Assembly: GCA_000002435.2 (NCBI GenBank)
Contig: AACB03000029.1
Origin: Giardia intestinalis
Taxonomy: Eukaryota
Reading direction: 5' to 3' (one strand)
DNA: 11,204 nt
Under the pieces are notes generated by a model that was given only the letters and a program-made list of their open reading frames with translations, did not search any database and had not been told where the DNA came from. Positions 3,027 through 4,874 of the stretch are shown here, piece after piece. Each line of letters begins with the position of its first letter. The first letter of the stretch is position 1. Made by a program: the position numbers and the translations under genes.

Positions 3027-4874
3027 TCACGCCTTCCCCCTGCACACGAACCACCAGCAGAGGAAGCCCACGAGGCCCCCCACGACAGCGATGACAGCCA
3101 CGGAGATCCCTGCTATGGCACCAGTACTGAGGCCGCTTCTGTTGCCCCCGCTGGGCTTGGTGGACACGCACGCCTCACCCTCCAGCCTGTAGTCGTCCCC
3201 ACACTGGCCGCACTTGTTCTCCTCGCTGCACCTGACGCACCCGTCGATATTGCAGGCGATGCACTTCGTTCCGTCTGTGTTCGGCCTCTGGTCTTTACTG
3301 GTACAGGCCTCGCACTTACCGCCTGCTCCACAGTGCGAGCATCCGTCAACGGTACATGCGAAGCACCCGCTCCCAGCCAGGTTGGGCTTGTTGTTGTTGG
3401 TACACGCTGTACACACAGCAGCAGTCATACCAGTCTCAGACAGAGCTGTTGGGGCCGTGCATGCCGAACAGCCATCTACCCCCACATATGCCTTAGAGGT
3501 ATCACCAGTGCCTACTAGTGTGCCAAGGGAGTTGCTACATGCCAATACAGACTGATTCTGATTGGTTGCCCCAGGGACTATGAAGTACCTATTGTTGGCA
3601 TTAACAGCGGTACAGACACCGTTGGCTGCTGTCTTGCACATATGTTGTCCAGGTACTGTATCAACCTTGTAACAACCTCCCATATACAAGAAGTAGTTGT
3701 TAGTGCATTGTGTACATACACCTTGATCACATTGATTATTTGCTTTAGCACTATTACACTTCCCATCTATAGGATACGTATTAGCTTCTCCACAGTATGA
3801 GCAATAATGATGCTCTACACCCTTATCATCAATCACTATTGCATCGCAGGCACCAGAAGTTCCTCCACAGGCAGTATCATCTTCACAGATCTTGGTGCAT
3901 GTGACAGAGCCAGTACTGCCCTCCTTGCGATAGTTAGGCTTACAGTCAGTGCACTTGAAAGCACCGTTGTTAGAGCAGACACTGCAGCCTTCGCGACCCT
4001 TATCGTCTACGCTATCGCATGGGACGCACTTCTTCCCCTGTTGATCTGTAGTAGTTACTAAGAAGTATCCAGTCTTGCAGGTTTCACACTTATTTGGATC
4101 ACCAGCAACAGAGCATGTGGCACAGTTATCACCACACTTGTCTGTACATGTACTAGTACCACTATCAAAGAAGTATCCATCGAGACAGGCTGAGCAGGTT
4201 GGATTGTCACTTCCTGTTTTCGTACATGTCTTGCAGTTGGCCTTTCCTTCGTTACCAAGAGTTGAATCTGTCACATCACTACAAAGAGCACACGTTTTGT
4301 CCTCCTTCATAAATAAGGCCTCGTCAGCGCCCTCGCATCCTTCAAGCGTCTTCGCCACGCAGGTCGATGTCCCGTCGAGGGCCGTCCTGGGGGTCTTATT
4401 GGTCCCGCAGTTAGTGCACTTCGGCTTCCCCGTGGCCTTGTCGAAGGAGCATGCCGTGCACTCTGCGTGTATCGTACTACATGCCTTGCATGTTCCCGAC
4501 TCCGGGTCAGCATACTTATCATTACCACAGCTATCAGTACATTGATTCCCATTGAGGTACTTCCCCTCTGGACACGATGTGCACTGGGTCGCCGATGTCT
4601 CACAGGTGGCACAGTTCCCCTCGCATGGCTTACAAAGCTTGTTGTTTAGGAAGTACCCCTCTTGACAGGTATTACACGTGGCAGGTCCTGCATTCCCTGG
4701 TGCCGTACACTTGAGACAGTTGGCCACTCCCGTATATCCATTCGCTCCCTTGATATCAGAGCACAAGATGCACTCCCCACCAGGAGTCACCTTGTCTGCC
4801 CTGTTCTGGAATATGTACTTGTTATCTGTCTTACAAGCAGTGCACAGTCCATTACTGGCCTTTGTACATATCAC
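3027..4874 (-). CDS. vsp: Variant-specific surface protein cassette C (615 codons in the ORF track). The track's 'M' is a GTG codon at 4872-4874. The real open frame starts at 4886 right after an in-frame TAG (4887-4889) and reads 'CDSGVICTKASNGLCTACKTDNKYIF...'. There is no ATG until about codon 190.
   Basis: CXXC-rich with GGCY in 'YMGGCYKVDTVPG'. It ends in '[17 protein letters not shown]'. Bases 3027-3420 are near-identical to 6747-7140 (the 3' end of cassette E). Bases 3482-4509 are near-identical to 8981-10008 (the core of cassette F). Confidence 0.85.
   Translation of the reverse strand: MICTKASNGLCTACKTDNKYIFQNRADKVTPGGECILCSDIKGANGYTGVANCLKCTAPGNAGPATCNTCQEGYFLNNKLCKPCEGNCATCETSATQCTSCPEGKYLNGNQCTDSCGNDKYADPESGTCKACSTIHAECTACSFDKATGKPKCTNCGTNKTPRTALDGTSTCVAKTLEGCEGADEALFMKEDKTCALCSDVTDSTLGNEGKANCKTCTKTGSDNPTCSACLDGYFFDSGTSTCTDKCGDNCATCSVAGDPNKCETCKTGYFLVTTTDQQGKKCVPCDSVDDKGREGCSVCSNNGAFKCTDCKPNYRKEGSTGSVTCTKICEDDTACGGTSGACDAIVIDDKGVEHHYCSYCGEANTYPIDGKCNSAKANNQCDQGVCTQCTNNYFLYMGGCYKVDTVPGQHMCKTAANGVCTAVNANNRYFIVPGATNQNQSVLACSNSLGTLVGTGDTSKAYVGVDGCSACTAPTALSETGMTAAVCTACTNNNKPNLAGSGCFACTVDGCSHCGAGGKCEACTSKDQRPNTDGTKCIACNIDGCVRCSEENKCGQCGDDYRLEGEACVSTKPSGGNRSGLSTGAIAGISVAVIAVVGGLVGFLCWWFVCRGKA
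3482..4509 (-). repeat. Near-identical block of about 1.0 kb shared by cassette C (3482-4509) and cassette F (8981-10008). Window start 1-655 equals 3855-4509. Bases 10895-11204 of cassette G equal 3482-3790 apart from indels.
   Basis: Direct comparison of the VSP core. Identity breaks at 3470-3480 versus 8960-8980 (AC-TAPTALSET versus QC-TAPAALTGA) and at 4510 versus 10009. Confidence 0.8.

Follow-up and report, generated by a model that had tools for sequence, protein, structure and literature searches.

Seven VSP Cassettes Lie Head to Tail in the Window

The window analyzed, i.e., the whole stretch of 11,204 nt from Giardia intestinalis (contig AACB03000029.1 of assembly GCA_000002435.2), contains seven VSP cassettes arranged head to tail on the minus strand, five of them complete and two cut by the window ends. 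The cassettes were recognized as long minus-strand reading frames with protein matches; they recur with a period of 1809–1926 nt and are separated by spacers of ~60 nt that contain in-frame stops. We have retained the names A to F and A' from a preliminary description of this DNA. Unit A occupies positions 1–1100, its 3' part lying outside the window, units B (1101–3026), C (3027–4933), D (4934–6746), E (6747–8630), and F (8631–10439) are complete, and unit A' (10440–11204) has its 5' part outside the window; all are on the minus strand.

The arrangement is that of a VSP linear array in the sense of Adam et al. 2010 and Xu et al. 2020, i.e., at least three adjacent head-to-tail copies, set apart by a few tens of bases, with neither an Inr nor a signal peptide in the downstream members. 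The order and copy number of the near-identical 1-kb repeats that it contains are as given by the assembly. Plus-strand open reading frames of 100–257 amino acids were not taken as genes, being antisense to the VSP frames and repeating with them. A search for Rfam families and tRNAs found none in the whole window, and the sole tandem repeat in it is a 10-nt spacer repeat at 1035–1077.

VSP Identity and Coding State of the Cassettes

Cassettes B, C, E, and F matched the Pfam VSP family (PF03302) with scores of 117–143 bits, compared with a cut-off (the gathering score) of 31.4, and the E-values across the cassettes ranged from 1e-33 to 1e-41. Each cassette encodes 25–31 CXXC motifs, 12–13% Cys, and one GGCY. 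A transmembrane segment followed by a CRGKA C-terminal tail is present in B, C, E, F, and A', whereas cassette D reaches the CRGKA tail only once a one-base difference in a run of C has been corrected. The poly(A) signal AGTGAAT lies 8–14 nt past each of the six cassette stops, at homologous positions (3013–3019 for one of the six, the rest being at 1087, 4920, 6733, 8617, and 10426). These six sites, all on the minus strand, are the only matches to AGTRAAY in the whole window.

The VSP initiator PyAatgTT, searched for as YAATGTT, gave no match in the whole window. The open frames begin ~60 nt past the upstream stop, behind in-frame stops, at ...SEICTKA..., and the frame start, ...SEICTKAEGGLCTACK..., matches approximately residue 105 in intact VSPs such as P0011, P0015, and P0043. 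Because the cassettes align with intact VSPs only from around this residue, the signal peptide and the first domain are missing. The marks of an intact, expressible VSP, i.e., an ATG start, an N-terminal signal peptide, and an Inr, were absent from all of the cassettes, which are therefore pseudo-VSPs rather than intact VSP genes. Cassettes B, D, and A' are also frameshifted, in each case by a single-base difference; as these differences lie mostly at short runs of 2–6 identical bases, the three frameshifts may be sequencing errors. The best match in the database was a WB protein (XP_001705784.1, referred to below as P0001), which begins at an internal Met and is 98.8% identical to cassette C.

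A Core of 1 kb Is Common to Cassettes C and F and, in Part, to A and A'

Repeat tracts were found by unit-against-unit BLAST and a diagonal scan. The preliminary description had claimed that C and F are identical over about 340 codons, and this was borne out: the stretch at 3478–4514 in C and that at 8977–10013 in F, both on the minus strand and referred to here as core K, are the same at 1033 of 1037 nt. The four differences, at 3543, 3581, 3609, and 4422, comprise three synonymous changes and one Ile/Val replacement, and the predominance of synonymous changes indicates that the identity reflects recent descent, not selection. Core K is carried by four of the seven cassettes, although in A and A' it is only partly visible. 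In the truncated cassette A, the N-terminal two thirds of the core (1–660, minus strand) matches C 3855–4514 without a mismatch. In the truncated A', the C-terminal third, together with the hinge that adjoins it (10872–11204, minus strand), corresponds to C 3460–3792, with one mismatch and two single-base indels in 333 nt; these indels lie inside the core at 11020 and 11051, and there is another at 10850. The core had been described as common to C, F, and A'. This holds over its full length for C and F and over 10872–11204 for A', while the partial copy in A is a fourth, which the title of that description did not name.

The breakpoints had been placed inside the coding sequence, near 3475/8975 and 4510/10009, and were mapped here to 3477/3478 and 4514/4515. 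At the N-terminal edge (4514/4515), C and F have no mismatches in 4423–4514 and then eight in the next 12 nt; the edge directly follows the TATGCTGACCC (YADP) codons. The C-terminal edge (3477/3478) lies inside GVDGCS(A/Q)C, and beyond it C and F are 82% identical over a 67-nt hinge, which is conserved in most cassettes, and then ~39% identical. Taking both sides together, identity between C and F beyond the edges of the core is ~40–65%. The transitions are thus sharp, as had been proposed, and not gradual, a view supported by a two-breakpoint maximum chi-square of 450 for C versus F; the values from 200 permutations averaged 10 and did not exceed 26, and on a 5-nt grid the interval that scored best was 3466–4510.

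In the database, no intact VSP carried core K at high identity, and the only such match was P0001, which is in turn a cassette annotated from an internal Met. A 29-nt core sequence gave no match in a metagenome scan.

The Core Is Seen with Two Types of End per Side

The N-terminal 120 codons of C and F had been reported to differ, and these regions are indeed only 62–66% identical. The C-specific N-terminal region (4515–4874, minus strand) has no near-identical partner in the window, the closest being that of E at 72%. The F-type N-terminal region of cassette F (10014–10353, minus strand) is identical to that of cassette A (661–1000, minus strand), and forms part of a longer tract in which A 1–1000 equals F 9354–10353 with one mismatch; the identity stops at CTAC codons.

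At the other end, C runs into an E-type C-terminus, just as the preliminary description stated: its long tail (3027–3410, minus strand) contains extra CXXC repeats, the transmembrane segment, CRGKA, and the stop, and positions 3145–3410 are 99.6% identical to the tails of E and A'. The D-type C-terminus assigned to F was a partial likeness. The short tail of F (8631–8976, minus strand) resembles that of D in its architecture, but the two have only a single near-identical patch, of 93 nt, and the WB protein P0009, with 51 residues identical to the F tail, is closer.

The tails visible with the core are therefore E-type in C and A' and short and D-like in F, and the visible N-termini are F-type in F and A and C-type in C. 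The earlier statement that each copy of the core has different ends was incorrect, because the visible C-terminal end of A' is that of C (2899–3437 = 10312–10850, eight mismatches) and the N-terminal end of A is that of F, so that only two end types are visible per side. The nearest relatives of C change by segment, being E and A' in the tail, F, A, and A' in the core, and E (at 72%) in the N-terminal region.

Repeats also span the boundaries between cassettes. A junction block is present three times (B/C, D/E, and F/A'), with offsets of 3720 and 3693 nt, i.e., two cassettes. The first copy (2626–3410, minus strand) comprises the head and N-terminal region of B, the spacer, the poly(A) signal, the stop, and the tail of C; the second (6346–7130, minus strand) the head and N-terminal region of D, the spacer, and the tail of E; and the third (10312–10850, minus strand) the head of F, the spacer, and the tail of A'. 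The first two copies are the same over 785 nt with ten mismatches and no indel, and 6645–7130 equals 10338–10823 with three mismatches. Cassettes B and D have N-terminal regions that are 96% identical and bodies that are unrelated. Since the tracts run across a stop codon, a poly(A) signal, and a spacer, the exchange follows DNA homology and ignores the boundaries of genes and protein modules.

The tract with the B/D-type head (2899–3437 = 10312–10850) and the A-type tract (1–1000 = 9354–10353) overlap at 10312–10353. This stretch of 42 nt on the minus strand, which forms the 5' joint of F and encodes CTACKTANGLFKNP, does not vary between A, B, and F. Whether breakpoints coincide with conserved motifs had been raised previously, and some joints do lie on conserved motif-coding DNA (CXXC and YADP, the 42-nt joint in F, and GVDGCS(A/Q)C at the C-terminal edge of the core). 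However, when seven tract ends were set against conserved DNA, the percentiles ranged from 39 to 99, which represents a weak trend.

Three Cassettes Have Long Tracts in Common with Intact VSPs

Comparisons of the cassettes with intact VSPs were made at the protein level. Residues 314–573 of cassette B are the same as residues 433–692 of P0015, i.e., 260 amino acids without a mismatch. Cassette E and P0043 have 177 amino acids in common, with three mismatches, and cassette D and P0017 have 153, with one mismatch. All three partners are intact WB VSPs with signal-peptide-like N-termini. Cassette D is in addition ~95% identical overall to "VSP S7" (P0003), and the core in C and F has 73 residues in common with P0002, a stretch that ends exactly at GGCY. 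Given the near-zero divergence within tracts (0/660 nt and 1/1000 nt) and these common stretches of 153–260 residues, it is conceivable, if doubtful, that ongoing mitotic gene conversion links the arrays to the expressed repertoire. If this were so, Giardia would renew its set of antigens by forming mosaics at the DNA level, in addition to switching epigenetically.

Recombination as the Probable Source of the Mosaic Structure

The identity tracts in the window are 486–1037 nt long and contain 0–10 mismatches, with flanks at 40–65% identity. Read from the sequence, the cassettes are mosaics, of the kind produced by the exchange of stretches of ~0.5–1.4 kb by homologous recombination. We consider that the window probably represents a silent linear array of VSP pseudogene cassettes truncated at the 5' end, its source being an assemblage A isolate of Giardia intestinalis (WB or one very close to it, given the long identical tracts in several WB proteins), with the core a recent tract of non-allelic recombination, and would put the probability of this reading at roughly 0.8. 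The segmental recombination proposed in the preliminary description agrees with the sharp internal breakpoints and with the change of nearest relatives from one segment to the next.

Core K would thus be the product of recent homologous recombination, non-allelic and among paralogues. Gene conversion is the main candidate process, because the core tract is bounded on both sides. The two-cassette periodicity points to past unequal exchange or duplication, and probably arose by unequal sister-chromatid exchange. The B/D-type head of F and its short D-like tail would then be those of an "even-position" cassette, in which an A-type cassette has supplied ~1.38 kb (8977–10353) in place of the original interior. 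Cassette C would be of the "odd-position" kind, its head E-like and its tail E-type, and would carry the same core. We infer the mechanism and its direction, as well as any role of the array in supplying segments to expressed VSP genes as an archive; mechanism and direction are read from one genome, with which conversion and double crossover are both compatible.

The clearest visible effect of exchange on the core is homogenization, with the same ectodomain core now present in four of the seven cassettes. The preliminary description had instead taken the array to store combinatorial variants, as segmental recombination that generates diversity would produce. That reading went beyond what the core displays here, and as a hypothesis it is already to be found in Adam et al. 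2010 (PMC2996952).

Might the array nevertheless be an active donor archive, in which silent cassettes feed expressed VSP genes by segmental gene conversion often enough to extend the antigen repertoire, much as in the mosaic VSGs of Trypanosoma brucei or the vls and pilS cassettes of bacteria? The tracts that B, D, and E have in common with intact, signal-peptide-bearing WB VSPs, identical or nearly so over 153–260 residues, speak for such an archive, and a tract divergence of 0–0.4% points to recent events. The idea has been proposed in the literature for both G. intestinalis and G. muris, and a population study from 2025 found VSPs to be enriched among gene-conversion genes. However, common tracts give no direction, and a cassette might just as well have received its tract from an intact gene. 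The database contains no intact VSP with core K at high identity, the effect on this core within the array has been homogenizing, and the window contains neither an expression site nor an intact recipient gene. Moreover, where Adam et al. (PMC2996952) deal with VSP switching in Giardia, it is described as epigenetic, without DNA rearrangement. On balance we regard active supply from this array as unlikely, although it is the best placed of the alternatives.

An artifact of assembly or polishing, in which reads from one or two core-bearing cassettes were placed at several positions in the array to give a chimeric consensus, is a good deal less probable than that. Assemblies typically break inside repeats, and both ends of this window do lie in the core repeat, A' stopping at the C-equivalent of 3792 and A starting at that of 3855, 62 nt apart. 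An imperfect consensus is also suggested by the single-base indels, most of which coincide with short homopolymer runs, and arrays commonly end contigs (Adam et al., PMC2996952). Nevertheless, the copies of the core carry private substitutions, all of the joints are in frame, and the neighbors differ for each copy. The older, separately annotated WB RefSeq set, too, contains the core joined to an E-type tail (P0001), as well as the F-type tail (P0009) and the 73-residue sub-segment of the core (P0002).

Finally, tandem duplication followed by ordinary divergence without recombination, with the core under purifying and the ends under diversifying selection, can be set aside: duplication itself did occur, as the head-to-tail order and two-cassette periodicity show, but its combination with selection is excluded, since synonymous sites are identical too (345 codons contain only three synonymous differences) and since the cassettes are pseudogenes, whose lack of starts and signal peptides makes selection on a protein implausible, while the edges are abrupt, the nearest neighbors change by segment, and the tracts cross non-coding spacers.

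Relation to Other Antigen Gene Arrays

The non-allelic recombination tract that we favor has a parallel in the mosaic VSG genes of Trypanosoma brucei, where, as would be the case here, a large silent archive holds arrayed and often defective antigen genes, and where segmental conversion has its joints in short homology. Experiments have shown that such conversion, into a telomeric expression site, is how T. brucei itself switches. Giardia differs in that switching is described as epigenetic, and the window contains neither an expression site nor a recipient. To judge from its sequence, the window has in common with archives of the VSG, vls, or pilS type its promoterless, putatively silent candidate donor cassettes with segmental sequence sharing.

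Arrays of this kind, their recombination, and the idea of a cassette reservoir have been in the literature since 2010, with a further account in 2020. Adam et al. 2010 (BMC Genomics 11:424, PMC2996952) described linear arrays in WB with spacers averaging 60 bp, in which the members further downstream are without the PyAatgTT initiator, and in many cases have no start codon either, and in which the conserved 3' end encodes CRGKA. Between members of an array they noted "long regions of 100% identity", and they obtained significant recombination tests, and put forward the hypothesis that the members are not expressed, but are either recombination cassettes or discarded genes. The present array is like these, with no difference of kind. 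In G. muris, Xu et al. 2020 (Microb Genom 6:mgen000402, PMC7641422) described tandem arrays of non-transcribed pseudo-VSPs from which the 5' parts are missing and which exchange with intact VSPs, and they cited the same for G. intestinalis. The G. muris arrays are almost all adjacent to telomeres, whereas those of G. intestinalis are not preferentially telomeric, and the G. muris tails end in GCRGK, so that the CRGKA tail of the present cassettes indicates G. intestinalis. A catalogue of WB pseudo-VSPs in arrays, with 5' parts absent, has also been presented by Rodriguez-Walker et al. (2022 preprint).

To this the present analysis adds the tract ends at base level and the 42-nt joint in F, as well as the junction block with its two-cassette spacing and the names of intact VSPs that have identical tracts in common with cassettes B, D, and E. 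The window thus provides a base-resolved worked example of how a VSP pseudogene array evolves, which leaves the current picture unchanged, and which should be useful to anyone testing whether Giardia arrays supply the expressed repertoire.

Two further loci were considered as arrays and rejected. On the first, an ENA contig (L001, with P0004), a VSP stands on its own among genes of the kinase and ankyrin types. The second, from the assemblage A2 isolate DH (L002, with P0022), likewise has a lone VSP, whose 933-nt match to the 3' half of cassette E, at 90% identity, indicates only that this module predates the A1/A2 split.

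Modules of the Array and Their Counterparts in Other VSPs

The 3' half of cassette B (1101-2050) matches P0015, an intact WB VSP of 748 amino acids that has a signal peptide and is encoded on a 4.0-Mb contig. In a protein-level comparison, residues 433-692 of P0015 were the same as residues 314-573 of B, i.e., 260 identical amino acids. Identity of this length would point to a recent tract common to the silent cassette and the intact gene. The modules of the array also differ markedly in G+C content, which was 0.48 in the near-identical ectodomain core (core K) and 0.50 in the body of D, but 0.59 in the body of B and 0.62 in the long C-terminal (E-type) tail; the contrast can be seen by comparing 1300-2600 with 3478-4514. 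Because of these differences, we suggest that modules of different histories, or from different VSP clades, have been brought together in one array.

Cassette D (4934-6551) was about 95% identical to UniProt Q8I8W2 (P0003), annotated as "Variant-specific surface protein S7." The deposited Q8I8W2 begins at the same internal methionine (MGVAGCSECSH...) as do the B and D ORFs, and this protein too may therefore derive from a 5'-truncated array member.

Frameshifts, Spacers, and Ends of the Window

Comparison with close paralogues revealed frameshifts in B (1193-1280), D (4982), and A' (10850, 11020, and 11051). Every one involved a single base, most of them at homopolymers 2-6 bases long (in B, for example, GGGG versus GGGGG, and in D, CCCCC versus CCCCCC). 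These frameshifts may have arisen as errors in a long-read consensus and not as genuine pseudogenising mutations.

The spacers, about 60 nt in length and found for example at 1035-1077, 2960-3010, 6680-6730, 8560-8615, and 10370-10425, are built of short imperfect repeats of the GTGATAG or CCACTATCAC type. In other WB array members (P0002 and P0005) the same repeats are annotated as an N-terminus, "MLYSDSDSDS...," and the annotated ATG of this type overlaps the poly(A) signal of the upstream cassette (AGTGAATGCT).

Both position 1 and position 11204 of the window lie within the repeated core. The last base of A' is equivalent to C 3792 and the first base of A to C 3855, with 62 nt between them, and a hypothetical join of A' to A would yield a single cassette with an F-type N-terminus (the N-terminal region common to F and A), the core, and an E-type tail. 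Possibly the window is a short contig interrupted within this repeat; alternatively, it may correspond to about one unit of a higher-order repeat of six cassettes.

On the plus strand, ORFs of 100-257 amino acids, such as those at 221-661, 4075-4545, 8013-8786, and 9574-10014, lie antisense to the VSP frames and recur from cassette to cassette, apparently as a side effect of the codon composition of VSPs.
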